DNA of 64,000 nt from positions 18,037 to 82,036 of the forward strand of contig JAJYTP010000003.1 in the NCBI GenBank assembly GCA_021792955.1, given 5' to 3'. A program made the position numbers and the translations under genes. Below the pieces are notes generated by a model. That model was given only the letters and a program-made list of their open reading frames with translations, ran no database searches and was not told the origin of the DNA. Source of the stretch: an archaeon (GTDB lineage: Archaea; Thermoproteota; Nitrososphaeria; Conexivisphaerales; UBA164). This document shows, piece by piece, positions 1 through 9,813 of this stretch (within the stretch, counting starts at the first letter, position 1; each line of letters starts with the position of its first letter).

Positions 1-1373
1 ATCCAGAACATCCAGAAGACCGTATTTACAAGCGGCCAGAAGAGTGATGAATAGAACGGTGTCCTGTAAAGCTGTGTAATTGAATATGGAAGGGGCGCCA
101 GCCCTTCGAACGGCAGCACTATGAGCGCCAGTATCCCCTGTACGAACCCGTGCGCGTAGCCAAACGGGTTGCTCATTATCTGTGGTATGGAAGCTGCATC
201 GGCCGCGGCTATCCCCATGTACGCGGAAGCGATGCCCATGAATCCGGTCCCGTTAAAGGAGGGAGAGTTGGCTGATGGCTCATAGCTGGCGTAAAATTCG
301 TATTTATTCATAAGGGTCAGGGTCGCGTTCCTTTCAATTGCAGCCGATGATCCATCCATCCCTGGCTGAAGGTAGGACACGGTTATGTTCTGGCCCGCCC
401 GTGAAGCGTTCAGATAGGAGCCCAGGTCATCTTCATTGTATATGGTGGTCCCGTTGATGCCCGTTATCAGGTCGCCGGGCTTCAAGCCTGCCGTCGACGC
501 CGGCGTCCCATTGTACACTCCCGTTATTTCGATGCCAGGATACACTGAAACCCCCTCAGACTTACCGTGATAGAGGACGGCCGCCGCCGTGGCTACGCCT
601 GGCTGCATGGTCATGTTGTTCAGCAGACCTACGGAGACAGGCGTGCCAGCGATGGAGACTATTTCCATCCCGCTTCTCAACCCCTGATTTACGCCTGGAT
701 ATGTCTGCGTTATGACCACCCCTGGTGATATGGCGGTAACCCCGGCGAATGCGCTTAGAAACAAGATGAGCATTACACCCGCTATAACCAGGTTGGTTGT
801 GGCGCCGGCCGCCTGGACCCTTAACCTCTTGATCCTTTCGGTTCCCTGTAAATCCTTTTCATCCAGCTCCACAAAGGCCCCCACCGGCACTATCAGCAGG
901 AGCACCCCAACCGAGTTGATCTTCAGCTTCTGGCAAGCGGCCACAATGCCGTGCGAGAATTCGTGCAGGACGATGCCGATGATCATGGCGATGAGCCCGT
1001 AGGAAATGGGGATCAGGGGATTTATGCCCGGCAGCGCAAGCACCGTTTGAAGGTTGGGGCCGCTCCCCTTTGGGATAAGCGTCACCAGAGTGGCCTCCCA
1101 GGCCAGGAAGGCCGTAGTAATGATCATGGTTATGACGCCGGCCAGTATGGCGAAGTCCCCGTACCTCTTCCAGAAGGAAGTCCTTGAGACCCTTTCTATA
1201 AGTCCCCTGCTCCTTTCAGTCTTCAGCATTATTGCGGGTCCAAAGAGGGAAATGTGCTTTGACGGCTTGTATTTCCTGATGGCCAGTAACAGCGCCGCCC
1301 ACACGATTATCAGCAGCAGAAGTATAAGGTAGCCGTTCAATTCCCTTACACTAGAGGGGTGGAGGAGTGGCAT
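1..1373 (-). CDS. M50 (site-2 protease) family membrane metalloprotease with PDZ domain; 3' end runs off the window
   Basis: The minus-strand frame is open from ATG (1373-1371) to the window edge, so it is absent from the ORF track. My translation reads MPLLHPSSVRELNGYLILLLLIIVW...GIVLHEFSHGIVAACQKL (HExxH, plus-strand about 949-969), then PDZ-like ...TAGLKPGDLITGINGTTIY. Plus-strand ORFs 712-1332 are shadows of it. Confidence 0.7.
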   Translation of the reverse strand, partial: MPLLHPSSVRELNGYLILLLLIIVWAALLLAIRKYKPSKHISLFGPAIMLKTERSRGLIERVSRTSFWKRYGDFAILAGVITMIITTAFLAWEATLVTLIPKGSGPNLQTVLALPGINPLIPISYGLIAMIIGIVLHEFSHGIVAACQKLKINSVGVLLLIVPVGAFVELDEKDLQGTERIKRLRVQAAGATTNLVIAGVMLILFLSAFAGVTAISPGVVITQTYPGVNQGLRSGMEIVSIAGTPVSVGLLNNMTMQPGVATAAAVLYHGKSEGVSVYPGIEITGVYNGTPASTAGLKPGDLITGINGTTIYNEDDLGSYLNASRAGQNITVSYLQPGMDGSSAAIERNATLTLMNKYEFYASYEPSANSPSFNGTGFMGIASAYMGIAAADAASIPQIMSNPFGYAHGFVQGILALIVLPFEGLAPLPYSITQLYRTPFYSSLFWPLVNTVFWMFW

Positions 1374-1623: not shown

Positions 1624-2202
1624 CTATGGTTTTTGAACTATGGCCCAGTTTGTAGTCAGCGTAGAGCCGGCTTCAGTGATCAGAAAGGGGTTGAGCAGTT
1701 CGTAGAACTGGGCCTTGGTCAAGCCCAGCCTGTCCCTTCCGAACCTGTTTATGCCGATGAACCCCAGGGAGCCAGGCTTCATGCACCTTACCATTTCATT
1801 GACAGCATCATTATGATCCCTCATGCAGCAGAGCAGCCCGTTGGAAAATAGTGCGTCTATGGAGCCATCTGGCACGAACGGTATGCTGGCAGCTGAGGAT
1901 GCATATGGCTTAACATTATCGATGTGCATCCTGCTCAGCCTCTCCGTCAATTTCTTTATTGCCCTTCCATCGGCGTCCACAGAATATACAGTACCTTCAG
2001 TGCCAACGGCCCTGGATATGGCCTGCGTAAAGAAGCCCGGGCCACTGCCCAGGTCCAGAACGGACATTCCAGGCCTTATGGATGAGGTGATAAAGCGCAT
2101 CTGGATGCCCGATGCATATTTCCTGAGGGGGAAGAGCATAACCCCCGGCCTGAAGTATCTGTCATTATCCGCCATTTTTTGCCTCCGTATACCTGTGTTC
2201 AT
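1624..2202 (-). CDS. Class I SAM-dependent methyltransferase
   Basis: 192 aa. It has the motif I sequence VLDLGSGPGFF followed by VYSVDADG, a typical Rossmann methyltransferase layout. Confidence 0.65.
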   Translation of the reverse strand: MNTGIRRQKMADNDRYFRPGVMLFPLRKYASGIQMRFITSSIRPGMSVLDLGSGPGFFTQAISRAVGTEGTVYSVDADGRAIKKLTERLSRMHIDNVKPYASSAASIPFVPDGSIDALFSNGLLCCMRDHNDAVNEMVRCMKPGSLGFIGINRFGRDRLGLTKAQFYELLNPFLITEAGSTLTTNWAIVQKP

Positions 2203-2516
2203 ATGTAAGGGTAGATGGCCATCTGCGGCAGGGGATAACTAGTAGCACCGGGCCTCCCGCAGGGCCGGCGTCCTCCTTCCCCTCTTCTTTCAATGTTCCG
2301 TCTGTACCCGAATGATTCATGGATGACTATTCATAGCAAATGAAAGGAGTATTTAAAAGTGTTTGAAAAATTTAAGGGTATAATTGTCAGCGGCATATAT
2401 TGATCCCATTTAACGCCGTATTACAGTGCAGCTTCAGGAGGAGCTGTGAATCTTGAGATGGTGAATCAACCGATAACTATATTAATATATATCAGGCGCA
2501 TGTGTTTTGACTCATA

Positions 2517-3059
2517 TTGTCCGGTAATGGTGTTGATATACGAAAACAGGTCGATGACAACCGTGGCATAGCCAAAAAGCTTGAGCTTCTGGTGCCGGGA
2601 CTGAGGCAGTACAGGAAGACCGACGACCTCAGGGTGGCTGATGACCTCCTAAGGCATCAGGTGGCTGACAAGGTTGACCAGGCCAAAGCCAACCTTGAAG
2701 CCTACCGAAAGCAGATGGTCGTAGCCGGCGACTTTGCAAACCTTTCCTCTGTGGGATCCCTGATCTTCGAGCTTCAGGAACTGAGCGGAAAGGTGCGGTA
2801 CGCTCAGCAGGGTTACGCCCCCCTTGTTGCTGCGATAAGCATAAACGAGGACAAGCTTAACGCTCTTTACAATTATGATTACGAGTTCGTCAATTCTGCG
2901 CTGAGCCTGGTGGAAGCCACTTCAAAGCTCCAGTACGACCAGGCTGCGGCCCTTTCAAACAAGTCGTCACTTGATGCAGTTAGCTCGGCCATGGTTGACT
3001 TTAAAAGAAAGTGGTCGGTAAGGCTTGAAGCTATAGAAGGGGTATTGGTGACGGGGTGA
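2517..3059 (+). CDS. Hypothetical alpha-helical protein, first gene of the SPFH/Zn-ribbon module
   Basis: 180 aa with a TTG start. A TATA-like ttaatatatat lies about 25-30 nt upstream. There is no TM segment or recognisable motif. The stop is 9 nt before the next gene, which is preceded by GGTGA. Confidence 0.5.
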   Translation: MSGNGVDIRKQVDDNRGIAKKLELLVPGLRQYRKTDDLRVADDLLRHQVADKVDQAKANLEAYRKQMVVAGDFANLSSVGSLIFELQELSGKVRYAQQGYAPLVAAISINEDKLNALYNYDYEFVNSALSLVEATSKLQYDQAAALSNKSSLDAVSSAMVDFKRKWSVRLEAIEGVLVTG

Positions 3060-3068
3060 AATAGGTAG

Positions 3069-4235
3069 ATGGCAAACAAAAACGATATGTCAAAGGGTGG
3101 AAGCGTATTTGGCTCCACTACAATAAGCTGGGAGCCACAGTTCAAGGAGGGGAACGTCATGTGGAAGGTCCCCAGGCTGATCAGGCTAAACGACAATATA
3201 GTCGTGAGGGAGGACGAAATAGCGGTGTTCTATAGGGACGGAAAGGTCCTTACTTACTTCGATAAGCCTAACAGGTATGCGCTGAGCGATTTTAATGCGC
3301 CCATAGTCGGCAACCTTCTGAAGTTCTTCGTAGGGGTTCAGCAACAGGCTGAAGTATATTACCTGCAGAAGAGGTTCATGGACGGGAAGTTCGGAAGCAC
3401 AGAACCCTACCAGTTCGTGGATCAGATCTTTGGGATCATAAACCTCAGGGTTTTTGGAGAGTACAGGTGGAGGGTCTCCTCCCCCGAGAACTTCATAAAT
3501 CAGTTCGTGGGCACGTTCGCGGCTGAAACATCCGATGATGTGGAAAAGAGGCTTAAGGAGCAGATGGTCCTCCTGGTATATAATACGTTAGGAAAGATGA
3601 AACAGCAGGGGTTGAAGGTCACCGACCTTGCTTCCAGCCTAGCTACCATTGAGCAGGCGGTGCTTTCGGTTTCGCCGGACAACTTTGCCCAGTACGGGGT
3701 CGAGATCAATAAGGTATCCGGCCTTACGATAAGCCTCCCAGAGGAGGTGCAGAAGGCCGTGGATACACGCTCGGAGATGTCGGTACTCGGCGTCAATTAT
3801 CTCCAGTACCAGGCAGGTCAGGCAATGACCGACGCCGCCAAGAACCAGTCCGGAGGGGCAGGCGCCCTGGCCGGGATGGGGGTGGGCCTGGGTGCGGGGG
3901 CTGGAATAGGGTATGCGATGGGCGGCCAGGTGATGCAGGGCATGGGCCAGCAACAGCCAACCAAGACTTGCGTCAAATGTGGAAGCATAATACCGATGAC
4001 CGCCACTTTCTGTCCGAACTGCGGCGCCCCGCAGCCTCAGCCAGGCCAGCCACAGCAGACACAGGGGAACTGCCCAAAGTGCGGGTCCCCACTGCCCGCC
4101 GGCGTCAAGTTCTGTCCGAACTGCGGCGCCCCAGTAGGTCAGCCAGCGACGAAGGTGTGCCCGAACTGCGGTGCCATTGTGCCGGTCAATTCAAAGTTCT
4201 GCCCCAACTGCGGGAAGCCAATGGGGACCGGGTGA
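3069..4235 (+). CDS. SPFH/band-7 superfamily protein of the COG4260 (YdjI-like, 'virion core protein-like') type with glycine zipper and three C-terminal zinc ribbons
   Basis: 388 aa. The N-terminal roughly 250 aa look SPFH-like. They are followed by the Gly-zipper SGGAGALAGMGVGLGAGAGIGYAMGG. Three CxxC-x(9-11)-FCPNCG units come next (CVKCG..FCPNCG, CPKCG..FCPNCG, CPNCG..FCPNCG). Confidence 0.75.
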   Translation: MANKNDMSKGGSVFGSTTISWEPQFKEGNVMWKVPRLIRLNDNIVVREDEIAVFYRDGKVLTYFDKPNRYALSDFNAPIVGNLLKFFVGVQQQAEVYYLQKRFMDGKFGSTEPYQFVDQIFGIINLRVFGEYRWRVSSPENFINQFVGTFAAETSDDVEKRLKEQMVLLVYNTLGKMKQQGLKVTDLASSLATIEQAVLSVSPDNFAQYGVEINKVSGLTISLPEEVQKAVDTRSEMSVLGVNYLQYQAGQAMTDAAKNQSGGAGALAGMGVGLGAGAGIGYAMGGQVMQGMGQQQPTKTCVKCGSIIPMTATFCPNCGAPQPQPGQPQQTQGNCPKCGSPLPAGVKFCPNCGAPVGQPATKVCPNCGAIVPVNSKFCPNCGKPMGTG

Positions 4236-4255
4236 AGGGAGGGAGGTAGAGGAAG

Positions 4256-5275
4256 ATGATATATTGTGACAAGTGTGGAGCCGAACTGCCAGACGATGCA
4301 AAGTTCTGTTACAAGTGCGGGGCTCAGGTAGGAGCTCCAGCAACCGGGGCTCCTTCACAGGGGCAGAAGGGGCAGCCCAAGGCTCAGGAGAACATTCTGG
4401 CTCCGGCCGGCATAACTTCACTGAAGTGCCCCAGCTGCGGTGCACCAATTACACCGAAGTTCGGTGAAATGATCATTACGTGTGAGTACTGTGGAAGCAG
4501 CATAACCCTGGCAAACGATGGCTGGAAGAGCATCCAGAAGCATACTATGCTGCCCTTAAAGTTCGTCGATGAGGGCCAGGTGGAGGAAAGGGTGAAGAAG
4601 CTTATGGACAGGGGCCTGCTGCACAGGCATCTAGAGGAGAGCTCTGTAAAGGAGGAGTTCTCCCTGAGTTACATACCATACTGGGTTGTTACTGTATCAG
4701 CAAGGACAACCGTGACCAGCCAGAACGTGGCAGCGCAGGTGGGTCAGACCGCCACTGAAGCCGCTGTGTTCGGGATACTGCTGGGCGGAATGGGTGGAGG
4801 CTTCGGCGGAAGGAGGTTCATCTCTACGGGGAAGGGCTTCGGTCCCACCCTCTTTTTCATGGGTGGCTATGGTGGCGGCGGCAACGTCACGGTGAACACT
4901 ATCGACGCGAACTACAACTACCCTGTGATAGCGGTAAAATCGCTTATGGAGTATCAGCCGAAGAACTACGAATTTGCAATGAACGAAAGGGTGCTTTTCG
5001 ATGTTTCCAAGGTAAAGTCCATCAAGGTGTTAAACGGCGACTTGAGCGAAGATGCAGCCAAGGGCCAGGCAAGGACCCTGGTGGAGCAGCTGCAGAGCGA
5101 CAGGGCGCACAAGCAGTATCATATGATACAGAAGCTTCAAACGGAGGTCGAAGTATCAGAGGGTGAACTGCTGCACGCCCCGGTGTGGTTCGCGAGGTAT
5201 GACCACAAGGGGAAGAAGATAGTGTTGCTAATAGACGGCAACAGCGGGAACACCATAAATTCAATAGGCCTCTGA
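4256..5275 (+). CDS. Double zinc-ribbon protein with Gly-rich central segment (YdjG-like architecture)
   Basis: 339 aa. It has MIYCDKCGAELPDDAKFCYKCGA and CPSCGAPI..CEYCGSSI, a Gly-rich FGILLGGMGGGFGG...MGGYGGGG segment, and a C-terminal HAPVWFARYDHKGKKIVLLIDGNSGNTI. A strong purine-rich SD (GGAGGT) precedes the ATG. Confidence 0.65.
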   Translation: MIYCDKCGAELPDDAKFCYKCGAQVGAPATGAPSQGQKGQPKAQENILAPAGITSLKCPSCGAPITPKFGEMIITCEYCGSSITLANDGWKSIQKHTMLPLKFVDEGQVEERVKKLMDRGLLHRHLEESSVKEEFSLSYIPYWVVTVSARTTVTSQNVAAQVGQTATEAAVFGILLGGMGGGFGGRRFISTGKGFGPTLFFMGGYGGGGNVTVNTIDANYNYPVIAVKSLMEYQPKNYEFAMNERVLFDVSKVKSIKVLNGDLSEDAAKGQARTLVEQLQSDRAHKQYHMIQKLQTEVEVSEGELLHAPVWFARYDHKGKKIVLLIDGNSGNTINSIGL

Positions 5276-5293: not shown

Positions 5294-5881
5294 CTATAAT
5301 GACTCCGCGCCGTTTCTCATGGCTATTGACGTCGCAGCAAGCACATCCTTCTGATAACGCACCCTGCCGCGCGGGGTGGTGCTCCTTTCATTTACTACCT
5401 GCACGATGTCCTTGCTCCTGAGCATCGGAAGCAGCCGTTCTGCTAAGCGGGCGGTTATGTCAGGCCTTCCATCCCCTATCTTAACGTGGATCGGAGCGTC
5501 CAGGGCGCTTATCATGCCGGAGATCATGGGCAGCACCTGTTCAGGGTCCATCGATATGGTAGTCCACACGGTTCTACCGTTCATGAGGATAGCTATTCCG
5601 GTGTGAGAGCCTGGATCTATGCCAACCTCTATCTTCCTTACCCTTCTCTCATAGTTCAGTAACATCAGAAGGTCCAGCGGCTCCTCCCTGATTATATCCT
5701 CGTATAGCAGGGTCATCCTACCGTCCATCAAGGGGGCTTCCTCCCTTGTGGTCAAATATAGCTTGGACTCGTCTTCGGTTTCCCATGGTAGGCTGGCCTC
5801 AAGCTTCATCCCGGTTCGCTTGAGCAGGCTGGCAAAGTAATAGAAGGCTTGGCCATTCACAGTAGCTATGCAAGGTTTCAT
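5294..5881 (-). CDS. Hypothetical protein with possible RNase H-fold (RuvC/YqgF-like) nuclease domain
   Basis: 195 aa. The central KIEVGIDPGSHTGIAIL resembles the first catalytic strand of RuvC/YqgF-like nucleases. I did not recognise the rest. Confidence 0.35.
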   Translation of the reverse strand: MKPCIATVNGQAFYYFASLLKRTGMKLEASLPWETEDESKLYLTTREEAPLMDGRMTLLYEDIIREEPLDLLMLLNYERRVRKIEVGIDPGSHTGIAILMNGRTVWTTISMDPEQVLPMISGMISALDAPIHVKIGDGRPDITARLAERLLPMLRSKDIVQVVNERSTTPRGRVRYQKDVLAATSIAMRNGAESL

Positions 5882-6162
5882 CTATGGTTACCCGATGGTG
5901 CCTGTTGTTCCATCGCCGTCCTGAGCGCCCTTAATCCTAACCTCATAACTCATGAGGGATATACTTTACATTAAGGATAAAAAGCTTTTTGCACGATTTT
6001 CCGCCCCGTTGGGCCGCTCGCAAGTAGATCGACAGGACAAGCTGCCTGCACATTTGGCTGTAAAAGGGATAGCCCTTATATACCAAAAAAACATTTTATA
6101 CCTAGGCCATGATCCATTTGATACTGGTCGCATGCTGCGACACTTTGGCGGACCAGTTCATG

Positions 6163-6238
6163 GGGCCGGTGGTGTAGCTTGGTCTTGCACATCGCTCTGA
6201 CACGGCGGAGATCCCAGGTTCAAATCCTGGCCGGCCCA
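6163..6238 (+). tRNA. tRNA-Val (anticodon GAC)
   Basis: I folded the cloverleaf by hand. The acceptor GGGCCGG pairs with CCGGCCC and the D-stem GTGT pairs with GCAC. The anticodon stem TCGCT/GGCGG closes the loop CTGACAC. The T-arm is CCAGG-TTCAAAT-CCTGG and the discriminator is A. No CCA is encoded. Confidence 0.85.
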
Positions 6239-6511
6239 TTCCTGGTTATGCATGCCTTGATGACCCTGCTTGTACATACGCTTGGCGTGCTAGATTGGCA
6301 TAAGGGGTTAATTTTTTACCGCTTATCAGAACGCTTCAGGAAGAGCGGCCGTTAATTTACTAGTGGACCAAACCGTATACCGTACGGGCATCGTCTTTAA
6401 GGGCAGGTATTTTTTTACTAATTTTCTTTGGATGGTACAGTGATCAGGATTTCTTAGTAATATAGGTAATCATGGAAATCTATATATACATGGTAATCCG
6501 GTACTACCAGT

Positions 6512-6976
6512 ATGACTGAAGAAAAGTCGGTAGATAAAGATGAAAGCGTAGAGAAAAGATCGGTAACCATCAAGGGGATCAGGAATGACCTTTACAAGAG
6601 GATGAAGGAGTTAGCATATGATACCGGTAAGACGCTCGGTGACGTGACCAACGATGCGTACTTGGCCATGGAATCGACGGCCGACGGCCTGCTTGATATG
6701 TCGAGGAACTTCCAGATGGGGCTCACCAGCGGAGGCAGTAAGGTCATAGGCCACATGAGTGAGCTAGAACTTACAGGGAGGGAGATAGCCGATGCCAATA
6801 AGAGGATACTGATAAGGAACGTAAAGAAGCTGACACTAAAAGATATAGACAATCAAACCGCTACAAAATACATTTTTTCAATAAGGGACGTGGATGAACT
6901 GTTCATACCACAGGGTCTTTCGAAGGTGGAACTTCTGTCCCGGTGTGCTAACATAGGTAAAGTAATCCAGGAATGA
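6512..6976 (+). CDS. Hypothetical protein, possible N-terminal ribbon-helix-helix
   Basis: 154 aa. RSVTIKGIRNDLYKRMKELAYDTGKTLGDVTNDAY has a beta-strand plus two-helix pattern like the CopG/Arc fold. The C-terminal part is unrecognised. Confidence 0.35.
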   Translation: MTEEKSVDKDESVEKRSVTIKGIRNDLYKRMKELAYDTGKTLGDVTNDAYLAMESTADGLLDMSRNFQMGLTSGGSKVIGHMSELELTGREIADANKRILIRNVKKLTLKDIDNQTATKYIFSIRDVDELFIPQGLSKVELLSRCANIGKVIQE

Positions 6977-6984
6977 TGCGCCGG

Positions 6985-7656
6985 TCAGGCGGGCACAAGG
7001 TGGAGGATGGTACACGCCCCAAAGCTAACCCTGACGGTCTCCACCCGGTATGCCTTGCCTCTCGCATTCAATAGCATATCAGCAAGAAGCCGCTCCCATC
7101 CATCGTTTCTTCTTATATATCCCCAGAGGCGAGTTGACATATCCCTTGTATCAGGGTCAATATAGAGAAGAACCCTGAGCAGCTTTATCCACAGCTCCCA
7201 GAAAAGCCTGGCCGGCCAGCTGGGTATCGAGAAATCAAAGATGACCGCCTCGCCCCTTTCCCTGAGCACCCTATCTATGGTTGAAGCCAGCCGGTCAAGG
7301 GGGACGTATTTTGGAAGGTACCCTGATATAACTAGGTCAAATTTGTCGGGCGAAGGTTCAACGTCAAGGGCGTTCATGACATTTATTCGCACCCGAGCGT
7401 CCACGATTTCAGCCCTGTGCTTTGCCACCATGGATGGTGAGCTGTCGACCGCCATGATCGTGGCCGATGGAAAGAGTTTCAACAGCTCTCTGGTGATCAG
7501 GCCAGTACCGGAGGCCAGTTCAAGGATAGACGGGCTGCCGGGCTCATTGATCATGCTCAGCGCCTTCAGCCTCCACCTCCTGTCCTGATTCATGGTGGTA
7601 AGCTTGACTAGGGTGTCATACTTGGCGCCGACCCTCCTGAAGATCCCGTCGTCCAT
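6985..7656 (-). CDS. UbiE/COQ5-like class I SAM-dependent methyltransferase
   Basis: 223 aa. It has FRRVGAKYDTLVKLTTMNQDRRWR (a YD..N..RxWR-type N-terminus) and motif I ILELASGTGLITRELL. Confidence 0.6.
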   Translation of the reverse strand: MDDGIFRRVGAKYDTLVKLTTMNQDRRWRLKALSMINEPGSPSILELASGTGLITRELLKLFPSATIMAVDSSPSMVAKHRAEIVDARVRINVMNALDVEPSPDKFDLVISGYLPKYVPLDRLASTIDRVLRERGEAVIFDFSIPSWPARLFWELWIKLLRVLLYIDPDTRDMSTRLWGYIRRNDGWERLLADMLLNARGKAYRVETVRVSFGACTILHLVPA

Positions 7657-7671: not shown

Positions 7672-8952
7672 CTACTGCCCTGTTTGGGCTTCCTGTTCAC
7701 CGGGATAGGGTTCAACCCGCAGCACGATGCCATTGACGGCCACCACCTTAACCCGCCTGCCCTTGCCAATTTTTCCTGATGAAGAAAACGCCCGCCACCT
7801 GACGCCATCAATGGATACTTCGCCGTTTGGATCAATGTCCGTTGTGGCCAACCCGTTAACACCGATCATTGATTCACTACCGGTAAATACCTTATTCATC
7901 CTTATGAATCTGAAGGCCCGCCTGATATAGAAGGAAATGAAAACGCCAGCTATCAGTATAATTATTATCGATACGATCAGGTCCCAGCCGCTTGGAGCCG
8001 GAGAATACCCTATCCCCTGGTTTAGAAAATAGATTCCGGCAGCGCCGGTTGCTATCGCCGCGAGGAACGCCACACCATGCCCGGTCTTAAGCTCAACAAT
8101 GAGGAATACCGCAGCCAGCACCAGTATTACGATCCCGAGCGCGGACGCGCTTATCACTTCCGCCCCTATGAGCCCAAGCACTATGGCGATAACCCCGCCG
8201 ATGCTCAGTAGCACCGTCGGATGCAGCAGGTCCAGTATGATAGCTATCATGCCGATAAGTATGAGCACTCCATCGAGGGTGGAGTTGCTCAATGCGCTCA
8301 GGAACTGGTCATAGTAACTTTCGCCTACGGTGACCGAAGGGAGGCCGCCTATTCCCAGTGAGGCCTCCGCCACGGTGATATTGCTTGCTTCCCCGTTTAT
8401 GACATTGTACTGGAGCGCCTGGTTAGCTGAGTATGCCGTATCATATAACACCATGTTGTAGGCGGCCGTTGAATTCCTCCCCCACTCATTGGCCAATCCC
8501 ACCATCAGCTTTAGCATGGCATCTTCGGTGTGGTTCTGTTCCAGTGCCGTCCCGCCCACCACTATCGGAGTAGAAGGGCCGATTTCTGTTCCAGGCGCCA
8601 TCAATATCCTGTTGGTTGCCATGGAGATATAGCTGGCTGCCGATGCCGCAATGCCGTTCTGCGGGACATAGGTGTAAACCGATATTCCGGATTGATTGGC
8701 TAGGGTAATTGAATTTATTATGTCAAGCATGTCAGAAAGGTAGCCCCCGGGTGAATTCATGACTATGAGTATGGCTACGGCATGATCGTTAATGGCCGTG
8801 CCGACAGCCTGGCTCATCATCGCCGATGCTCCAGGGTCGACCGTATAGTCGAAATTTACAACCACGACCTTGGCAGGAGCCTGACTCCTCACGGTGGAAA
8901 TTGGGATTAGAACCAGCGTGATGATGATGACGGCAAACAGTAGCCGGTTCAT
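7672..8952 (-). CDS. nfeD: NfeD-family membrane-bound ClpP-class serine protease (stomatin operon partner, STOPP-like)
   Basis: 426 aa. It has a signal/TM segment, a ClpP-like region (VMNSPGGYL, AASAASYISMA), several TM helices and a C-terminal OB-like NfeD domain. It lies 6 nt downstream of the stomatin gene. Confidence 0.8.
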   Translation of the reverse strand: MNRLLFAVIIITLVLIPISTVRSQAPAKVVVVNFDYTVDPGASAMMSQAVGTAINDHAVAILIVMNSPGGYLSDMLDIINSITLANQSGISVYTYVPQNGIAASAASYISMATNRILMAPGTEIGPSTPIVVGGTALEQNHTEDAMLKLMVGLANEWGRNSTAAYNMVLYDTAYSANQALQYNVINGEASNITVAEASLGIGGLPSVTVGESYYDQFLSALSNSTLDGVLILIGMIAIILDLLHPTVLLSIGGVIAIVLGLIGAEVISASALGIVILVLAAVFLIVELKTGHGVAFLAAIATGAAGIYFLNQGIGYSPAPSGWDLIVSIIIILIAGVFISFYIRRAFRFIRMNKVFTGSESMIGVNGLATTDIDPNGEVSIDGVRWRAFSSSGKIGKGRRVKVVAVNGIVLRVEPYPGEQEAQTGQ

Positions 8953-8958
8953 AACGAC

Positions 8959-9813
8959 TTACTGCTGTGCTCCCTTTTCCTCTTGCTCCTTCTTCTTACT
9001 TCCCTTAGCCATAAGGTCCTTTACATCGAAGAGCCCAAGTGGAGATAGCCCGGCTGTAGGGATATTGGAGGGTATCATTACTAGTGAGCTGTTGGACCTG
9101 AGGCCAAGCTCATATAACATGTTCATCCATCTCAACTGAAACGCCAGTTCATTATTTTTGTACTGGTCAGCTGCCTGGACCATCTTCTCAGCTGCCTGTG
9201 ATTCTGCCAATGCGAGTGTGACCCTGGCCCTCCTTTCCCTTTCGGCCTGTGCCTGCGCCGACATGGCAGCCTGTAGCGAAGATGGTATCTTCAGGTCCCT
9301 GACCTCCACTGCGGTGACCTTTATTCCCCAGGATTCGGTCTTTTCGTCTATTATCCCCCTTACTATCGTTCCGATCTTCTCACGCTCGGCAAGAAGCTCG
9401 TCAAATACGGTCTGGCCTACCACCTCTCTCAGCGTGGTCTGAGCCGCATATTCCGTAGCAGCGCGATAGTTTTCGACGCTCAGGACGCTCTTCTGCACAT
9501 CGGCAGGCATGAAGTACATCACGGCGTCAACGTCCACTGGCACGTTATCCTTCGTCAGCGTCTGTTCGGTGACGAATGAATATACCTGTAATCTGGTCGA
9601 AATTTTTATTGGCATCTTGCTTATGAACGGAAATACGTATACGAGGCCTGGCCCCTTGATACCCATGAACCTCCCGAGGGTCAGAACAGGTGCCCTTTCC
9701 CATTCCCGTAGAATATGTAACCCGCTCAAGAATACGCCTACTACAACTACTATTATGAATATTGAGAAATAAAGTAATATATCTGACATATAAAGTATTA
9801 ACCCGCGGTTCAC
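8959..9813 (-). CDS. Stomatin/prohibitin-type SPFH (band 7) protein
   Basis: 284 aa. It has an N-terminal TM segment, then REWERAPVLTLGRF...GPGLVYVFPFI, a typical stomatin core, and a coiled AQAQAERERRA region. Confidence 0.85.
   Translation of the reverse strand: MNRGLILYMSDILLYFSIFIIVVVVGVFLSGLHILREWERAPVLTLGRFMGIKGPGLVYVFPFISKMPIKISTRLQVYSFVTEQTLTKDNVPVDVDAVMYFMPADVQKSVLSVENYRAATEYAAQTTLREVVGQTVFDELLAEREKIGTIVRGIIDEKTESWGIKVTAVEVRDLKIPSSLQAAMSAQAQAERERRARVTLALAESQAAEKMVQAADQYKNNELAFQLRWMNMLYELGLRSNSSLVMIPSNIPTAGLSPLGLFDVKDLMAKGSKKKEQEEKGAQQ

Follow-up and report, generated by a model that had tools for sequence, protein, structure and literature searches.

The three genes at positions 2517-5275 of the archaeal DNA analysed here (64,000 nucleotides of contig JAJYTP010000003.1, hereafter the window) form one tightly spaced unit with a TATA-like box of its own, and their products are referred to below as P1, P2 and P3, from the first gene to the third. 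This operon probably encodes an archaeal SPFH membrane module of the YdjI/YdjG (SamI/SamG) type that lacks both PspA and YdjH; our confidence is high for the identities of the proteins and for their conserved pairing, and low for any specific role of P1. SPFH proteins are universal membrane organisers, the function of which is set mostly by dedicated partners such as NfeD, FtsH, or YdjG and YdjH together with PspA. The homology evidence identifies P2 as a predicted cytoplasmic SPFH protein of the YdjI type, its glycine-zipper linker followed by Zn ribbons at the C-terminus, and P3 as a homologue of YdjG, whereas P1 belongs to a large and uncharacterised family of predicted helical proteins, the genes of which lie directly upstream of genes for Band_7_1/Zn-ribbon SPFH proteins in archaea and bacteria.

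The operon and its relationship to the YdjI/YdjG system

The three open reading frames (ORFs) lie on the same strand and are separated by gaps of 9 and 20 nt (Table 1). Purine-rich motifs resembling Shine-Dalgarno sequences stand upstream of the second gene (GGGGTGA, 3053-3059) and of the third (GGGAGGGAGGT, 4237-4247), and in all these respects the tight module described from the letters alone in an earlier note on this DNA is borne out. In 80 related loci, the AT content ahead of the P1 start codon is maximal (0.7-0.8) at -41 to -32 over a background of about 0.45, a peak consistent with an archaeal promoter ahead of P1, and the AT-rich box found here at 2478-2492 is probably the promoter of the operon, with a leader that is very short or absent. 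Since a convergent gene ends 18 nt past P3, the unit consists of exactly three genes.

P2 matches the Pfam family Band_7_1 (PF13421) with an E-value of 5.5e-33 (114.8 bits for a cut-off of 24) over model positions 11-210 of 211, and three stretches of Zn_Ribbon_1/DZR type were found after the linker. It aligns with YdjI of Bacillus subtilis over nearly its full length (BLASTP 6e-10, residues 16-319 versus 9-319, 20% identity), in agreement with the architecture first proposed for it, that of the YdjI-type SPFH family, which we take to be COG4260. No classical transmembrane helix is predicted in P2, as its highest 19-residue Kyte-Doolittle mean is 1.32 and 1.6 is the usual minimum for such a helix; the maximum for YdjI is 0.70. 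Searches of the PDB with the sequences of P2 and P3 returned chance or Zn-ribbon matches only.

Pfam recognizes nothing but Zn ribbons in P3, and the case for its kinship with YdjG (341 aa), already suspected in the earlier note, is built on several alignments. BLASTP joins the two proteins at 3e-8 (residues 4-156 versus 7-154), with a second collinear segment at the C-terminus (PVWFARYDHKGKKIVLLIDGNSG versus PVWMVSYDYERAEHIFAMNGQTG), the two ribbons of P3 being collinear with YdjG residues 7-30 and 55-78, and an alignment of 57 P3 sequences matches YdjG with an hhalign probability of 97.5% (E 8e-12), ribbons included. Once the ribbons are taken out, only a weak direct signal is left (hmmsearch E 1.6e-6 in a one-sequence search; hhalign 13.6%). 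The gap is bridged by a protein of 273 aa, the gene of which (L094:2517-3335, minus strand) adjoins a distant P1-SPFH pair; this protein matches YdjG at 3e-14 (residues 18-271 versus 55-327, that is, from the second ribbon to the C-terminus) and P3 at 2e-23 (residues 12-248 versus 52-334). It is because this intermediate aligns with both proteins that P3 and YdjG can be called homologues.

P3 differs from YdjG in its hydrophobic parts. A Gly-rich, possibly membrane-inserting segment had been proposed in P3; the segment is indeed present (FGILLGGMGGGFGG, residues 172-185), but it does not resemble a transmembrane helix. In the alignment with the bridge protein, 44 residues of P3 within the Gly-rich region (163-207) show up as an insertion that interrupts the globular domain, and in the AlphaFold2 model of P3 (predicted local distance difference test, pLDDT, 80.7; predicted template modelling score, pTM, 0.70) residues 163-207 score below 50. 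This region is the only hydrophobic stretch of P3 and has a Kyte-Doolittle mean of 1.25, while the C-terminal segment of YdjG reaches 1.56. P3 ends right after its last beta strands, without the C-terminal transmembrane segment that characterizes the YdjG/SamG family. Genuine transmembrane helices in the Gly-rich segments of P2 and P3 were thus rejected on account of their low hydropathy. No PDB structure matched the P3 model in Foldseek at E<=0.001.

One homologue of P3, from a Thaumarchaeota metagenome-assembled genome (MAG), is 702 aa long owing to some 365 residues inserted in its second ribbon (L044:7659-9767, the same gene as L004:7659-9767). The insert separates the Ser of the CPSC knuckle from its second Cys (...KCPS/C VKPGTLILGD...N/CGAPI...) and contains a LAGLIDADG_3 domain together with a weak match to Intein_splicing; it is apparently an intein, here within the Zn-binding motif of a non-enzymatic protein.

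The B. subtilis operon used for these comparisons was taken from a metagenome contig, found with a published ydjG primer as an exact pattern (PMC8581546), and its gene order, pspA-ydjG-ydjH-ydjI, is the one stated in the earlier note and given in the literature (PMC8581546; PMC11237479). In B. subtilis, YdjG and YdjH recruit the soluble YdjI to the membrane and are required for YdjI foci, and YdjI recruits PspA (PMC8581546); SamI regulates and restrains signalling by SamGH (bioRxiv 10.64898/2026.02.06.704340). YdjG comprises two Zn ribbons, an NTF2-like domain related to that of YpeB, and a transmembrane segment (PMC11237479). The archaeal operon and the PspA-YdjGHI (PspA-SamGHI) operon of B. 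subtilis have in common a Band_7_1 SPFH protein with a low-complexity linker, one or more C-terminal Zn ribbons and no intrinsic transmembrane helix, as well as a protein of about 340 aa (YdjG or P3) in which two Zn ribbons at the N-terminus precede a homologous globular domain, all encoded in one operon. On the other hand, the archaeal operon has neither PspA nor the TPM protein YdjH, and its order is P1, SPFH protein, YdjG-like protein. Moreover, P2 bears three Zn ribbons and a Gly zipper, as against a single ribbon and a Met-, Asn- and Gln-rich linker in YdjI, P3 has an internal Gly-rich insertion in place of the C-terminal transmembrane helix of YdjG, and P1 is an additional conserved partner with no counterpart in the B. 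subtilis operon. The absence of a recognizable PspA from the operon, pointed out at the outset, extends to the whole window, in which tblastn searches with PspA and YdjH gave a best E-value of 0.6.

P1 and its family

AlphaFold2, given an alignment of 53 sequences, folds P1 with a pLDDT of 82.8 and a pTM of 0.78 into five predicted helices (residues 8-25, 35-69, 76-94, 111-136 and 145-176). P1 has no Pfam match at E<=1, and PDB searches with its sequence or with its profile yielded chance or Zn-ribbon matches only. Foldseek comparison of the model with the PDB returned only helical bundles of a generic kind, among them the talin rod and the vinculin tail, with E-values of 0.035 or more, and comparison with BFVD returned nothing at E<=0.001. 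The sole curated model touched by any member of the P1 family is NCBIfam NF047596 (LIMLP_15305), which P1 matches over almost the entire model with 30.4 bits (E 3.2e-7, positions 33-165 of 175), family scores ranging from 30 to 56 bits and bacterial members reaching E-values of 1e-9 to 1e-15. All these scores fall far below the equivalog cut-off of 210 bits, and P1 is, by this measure, a distant relative rather than a member of the LIMLP_15305 family. LIMLP_15305 is a hypothetical protein of Leptospira, and in the single paper that names the locus it figures only as a gene next to a small RNA.

P1 has 197 close homologues, of which all those that bear an organism name come from Nitrososphaerota (Nitrososphaerales, Conexivisphaerales or Thaumarchaeota), and a homologue search with the family-wide profile likewise returned almost only Nitrososphaerota. 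The family is nonetheless large: among 1.84 billion representative sequences, its profile matches 1084 clusters (50% identity) at E<=1e-3 and 511 at E<=1e-10, with members in archaea and in bacteria such as Caldisericota. Positions P27, G28, G31, Y32, E36, R39, D42, R46, G99, Y100, L114, Y118, D121 and R169 of P1 are conserved throughout the family. In two members, P0319 and P0377 (L089:654-1721), the P1-family domain is fused at its C-terminal end to DUF4178, a domain rich in beta structure that occurs in PspA/polyamine operons. Seven other representatives (P0250, P0251, P0258, P0271, P0281, P0284 and P0293) carry an N-terminal Zn ribbon of the CPxCG...FCxxCG type that is also found in P2 and P3. 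No description of the P1 family as the constant partner of Band_7_1/Zn-ribbon SPFH proteins was found in the literature searched.

Conservation among archaeal and bacterial loci

One genome per species was scanned with the alignment of Nitrososphaerota P1 sequences as the query. The scan gave 117 stretches with relatives, of which 80 loci were kept, and the ORFs of these were scored with the P1, P2 and P3 profiles. In all 80, P2 directly follows P1 (median gap 10.5 nt), whereas P3 directly follows P2 in about 54-56 (around 70%; median gap 10 nt). In approximately 21 loci the P1-P2 pair has no adjoining P3 and is followed by unrelated genes, the few further exceptions being contig ends or frameshifts. 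The conserved core is therefore the P1-P2 pair. The three genes are single-copy, share 50-65% identity and keep their order and spacing across these 80 species-level genomes, so that the co-conservation on which the earlier note had made its proposal depend is present, while the flanking genes vary between the genomes that carry the module. In one MAG (L085), the P3 homologue (37-1186) seems to be split by a frameshift into two ORFs and precedes the P1-P2 pair (5995-7633) by about 5 kb, an arrangement suggesting that genomes seemingly devoid of P3 may encode it elsewhere.

The pairing extends beyond close relatives. In seven of the eight informative loci of distant P1-family members (22-45% identity), a Band_7_1/Zn-ribbon gene stands directly downstream of the P1-like gene (L087, L090, L091, L092/L093, L094/L095, L096 and L097), which brings to 87 of 88 the loci with a P1 gene immediately upstream of an SPFH gene. 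The P1-SPFH pair of L092/L093 belongs to a Caldisericota bacterium, L097 represents another archaeal lineage and has the full triad with P3 after P2, and in L094 a P3-like gene adjoins the pair on the opposite strand. The eighth locus, L089, encodes a P1-DUF4178 fusion, then PspA_IM30, then a Band_7_1/Zn-ribbon protein. An extra small ORF (115-173 aa) directly precedes the P1-like gene on the same strand in L087 (3908-4429), L091 (1148-1495) and L097 (3213-3587); the product in L087 has weak matches to a PCI domain and to a C-terminal Zn ribbon, and these ORFs may represent an additional, lineage-specific component.

L096 offers a parallel with another two-gene unit. Ravi et al. (2024) described a CesT/Tir-PspA pair, of the YjfI-YjfJ type, in polyamine operons with DUF4178, DUF350 and spermine synthase (PMC11237479). 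L096:562-7737 encodes, on one strand, DUF4178 (694 aa), a small ORF, DUF350, a spermine-synthase-like protein (521 aa), two small ORFs (one with a Zn ribbon), a P1-like protein and a Band_7_1/Zn-ribbon protein, the P1-SPFH pair forming the end of the cluster. Because this pair stands where the CesT/Tir-PspA pair would be, the genome context, from which alone the parallel is drawn, suggests parallel roles for the two pairs. In each, two genes encode an oligomer that scaffolds the membrane and a small partner dedicated to it, and besides the shared type of cluster in L096, the DUF4178 fusions of P0319 and P0377 link the P1 family to the same setting. They differ in that the scaffold of the P1 pair is an SPFH protein instead of PspA and that P1 is predicted to be all-helical, with no CesT/Tir match in Pfam.

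Around the operon itself, the DUF460-like and methyltransferase neighbours (Table 1) were considered as parts of the module and rejected, as they are shared only with the two nearest genomes, at 97% identity (the methyltransferase also with L094). A second, unrelated SPFH system mentioned in the earlier note is real: the stomatin/NfeD operon at 7672-9813, on the minus strand, begins 2.4 kb downstream of P3, and the two genes are 6 nt apart. It resembles the P1-P2-P3 operon in that an SPFH protein is encoded together with a partner of its own that controls, or in the case of P2 would control, its membrane complex; unlike P2, which is a Band_7_1 protein without a hairpin, stomatin is a Band_7 protein with an N-terminal membrane hairpin, and its partner NfeD is a membrane protein with protease and OB-fold parts rather than a helical protein like P1 or a Zn-ribbon protein like P3. 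The proposal that the host is a wall-less acidophile has to be abandoned, as the nearest relatives (97-99% identity) are Nitrososphaerota MAGs and not Thermoplasma-like organisms: the nearest genomes, both at 97%, are 'Nitrososphaerota archaeon FK4_bin.88' and the unclassified archaeal MAG 'TL1-5.bin24', and the closest P3 homologue (99% identity) is annotated as Nitrososphaerota.

Table 1. Coordinates of the P1-P2-P3 operon, of the predicted domains of its products and of neighbouring genes in the window.
Feature	Position (nt)	Residues	Strand	Description
P1	2517-3059		+	180 aa, TTG start; predicted five-helix soluble protein of an uncharacterised family
P2	3069-4235		+	388 aa; predicted YdjI/SamI-type SPFH protein
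P2 SPFH domain	3180-3782	38-238	+	Pfam Band_7_1
P2 glycine-zipper linker	3855-3926	263-286	+	Read from the sequence
P2 Zn ribbon 1	3969-4022	301-318	+	CxxC...CxxC
P2 Zn ribbon 2	4071-4124	335-352	+	CxxC...CxxC
P2 Zn ribbon 3	4158-4211	364-381	+	CxxC...CxxC
P3	4256-5275		+	339 aa; predicted YdjG/SamG-like protein
P3 Zn ribbon 1	4265-4318	4-21	+	Zn ribbon
P3 Zn ribbon 2	4427-4492	58-79	+	Zn ribbon
P3 Gly-rich hydrophobic insertion	4742-4876	163-207	+	Splits the globular alpha/beta domain
TATA-like AT-rich box	2478-2492		+	TATATTAATATATAT; about 25-39 nt before the P1 start; sequence read directly
Class I S-adenosylmethionine (SAM) methyltransferase	1624-2202		-	Flank, upstream of P1, opposite strand
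195-aa protein	5294-5881		-	Flank, convergent with P3; weak DUF460 match
NfeD	7672-8952		-	NfeD1b_N, NfeD_membrane and NfeD C-terminal domains; 6 nt from the stomatin gene
Stomatin	8959-9813		-	Band_7 (1.1e-32); second SPFH system in the window

Proposed role of the module and rival explanations

In the explanation that we favour, P2 would oligomerise, like other SPFH proteins, into a scaffold at the inner face of the membrane, where P3 would tether or position it by analogy with YdjG and YdjH, through its Gly-rich hydrophobic insertion and not through a transmembrane helix. P1 would bind P2 as an obligate adaptor, an assembly regulator or a chaperone-like subunit, in a relation resembling that of the CesT/Tir-like protein with PspA in YjfI-YjfJ. 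The presence of the same Zn ribbon on P2, P3 and some relatives of P1 suggests a common docking function, and this ribbon probably gathers the components together or at a common target. The likely role of such a module would be the surveillance or the stabilisation of stressed membranes.

Several points weigh against this explanation. We infer direct contact between P1 and P2 or between P2 and P3, and we infer the association with the membrane as well, since no confident transmembrane helix is predicted in any of the three proteins (highest Kyte-Doolittle means 1.25-1.32). P3 cannot be an obligatory anchor, as it is not beside the pair in about 21 of the 80 loci, and the distant part of the P1 family is represented by eight informative loci only. 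Finally, the conserved polar residues R39, D42, R46, Y100, Y118, D121 and R169 of P1 could mark a small-ligand site instead of a protein interface.

This last point leads to the reading of P1 as a sensor of a small ligand or a metal (e.g., TerB-like or polyamine-responsive) that couples a chemical signal to the SPFH scaffold, which we consider unlikely. These seven residues are invariant family-wide and lie on three helices and a loop, one JGI homologue record is labelled 'tellurite resistance protein B-like', and genes for DUF4178, DUF350 and spermine synthase are found fused to those of family members or in clusters with them. However, a network of internal salt bridges or a contact surface for another protein would explain the residues equally well, and the JGI label was assigned automatically and is unverified. 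In addition, the polyamine genes accompany P1 in one locus only, and no member matches TerB or any other ligand-binding family of Pfam. The TerB-like variant was rejected, with no TerB match for P1 at E<=1 and TerB outside the 25 commonest Pfam families among 72 members.

P1 might otherwise be a highly divergent remodeller of the PspA/ESCRT-III type that acts in the role of PspA and is recruited to damaged membrane by the SPFH protein, but this we hold to be rather improbable. The earlier note had seen P1 as occupying the position of PspA, and part of that description stands: P1 is predicted to be all-helical, its gene comes first in the operon as pspA does in B. subtilis, the window has no PspA that could fill the role, and in L096 the P1-SPFH pair takes the place of the CesT/Tir-PspA pair (PMC11237479). 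The weak Foldseek neighbours of P1 are helical bundles, some of which (vinculin tail, apolipophorin-III and talin rod) are lipid- or membrane-associated. The kinship itself finds no such support: a profile of 72 family members gave an hhalign probability of 0.1% with B. subtilis PspA, none of the 72 matched PspA_IM30 or Snf7 in Pfam at E<=1, and PspA, Vipp1 and ESCRT-III were all missing from the 50 best Foldseek matches in the PDB, none of which reached E<=0.001. The single confident fold predicted for P1 (pTM 0.78) would also be more in keeping with a compact helical protein than with an extended hairpin. The remark that P1 bears no recognisable PspA/ESCRT-III signature holds for these searches, and neither Pfam nor Foldseek placed P1 in any well-characterised unrelated family. 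Because L089 encodes a P1-family protein beside a genuine PspA, the description of P1 as a partner dedicated to the SPFH protein fits better than that of a disguised PspA or an occupant of its place.

Some candidate defence systems include SPFH proteins, and the flanking genes of the module differ between genomes, those upstream of it in L003 including genes for a patatin and an N6/N4 DNA methylase. But a function in anti-virus defence or as mobile-element cargo that merely reuses an SPFH scaffold is very improbable, as none of the three proteins matches PADLOC, no relative was found in 2.9 million viral contigs, a bacterial family member has no match in 72,556 plasmids, and single copies of the genes, 50-65% identical, occur in at least 117 species genomes from the same phylum (80 loci examined). 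Conservation of the operon throughout a phylum in differing contexts leads us to expect a vertically inherited housekeeping or stress function.

The reading of the operon as a YdjI/YdjG-type module with P1 as an SPFH partner also admits a bolder extension, to which we give only a small chance: the P1 family would be an ancient and unrecognised co-factor of Band_7_1 SPFH scaffolds in archaea and bacteria, and in operons devoid of PspA a P1-SPFH pair with a YdjG-like protein as its anchor would by itself carry out membrane repair or remodelling, with P1 as the effector that opens onto or caps the damage, or hands the site to the ESCRT-III (CdvB) machinery of archaea.

The locus is not a new kind of system, and the YdjI/YdjG/PspA system and its domain architectures are already published; no description of an archaeal variant without PspA and TPM was found in the literature searched. 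Such a variant helps to define the minimal conserved core of a system that is now under active study in B. subtilis. P1, for its part, represents a new family of SPFH partners with about 1000 clusters at 50% identity and no Pfam model, which curators of Pfam and COG could define. Its fusions and gene clusters tie it to DUF4178, to PspA and to polyamine-associated envelope-stress operons, and make of it a concrete and testable candidate for the regulation of YdjI-type SPFH scaffolds.

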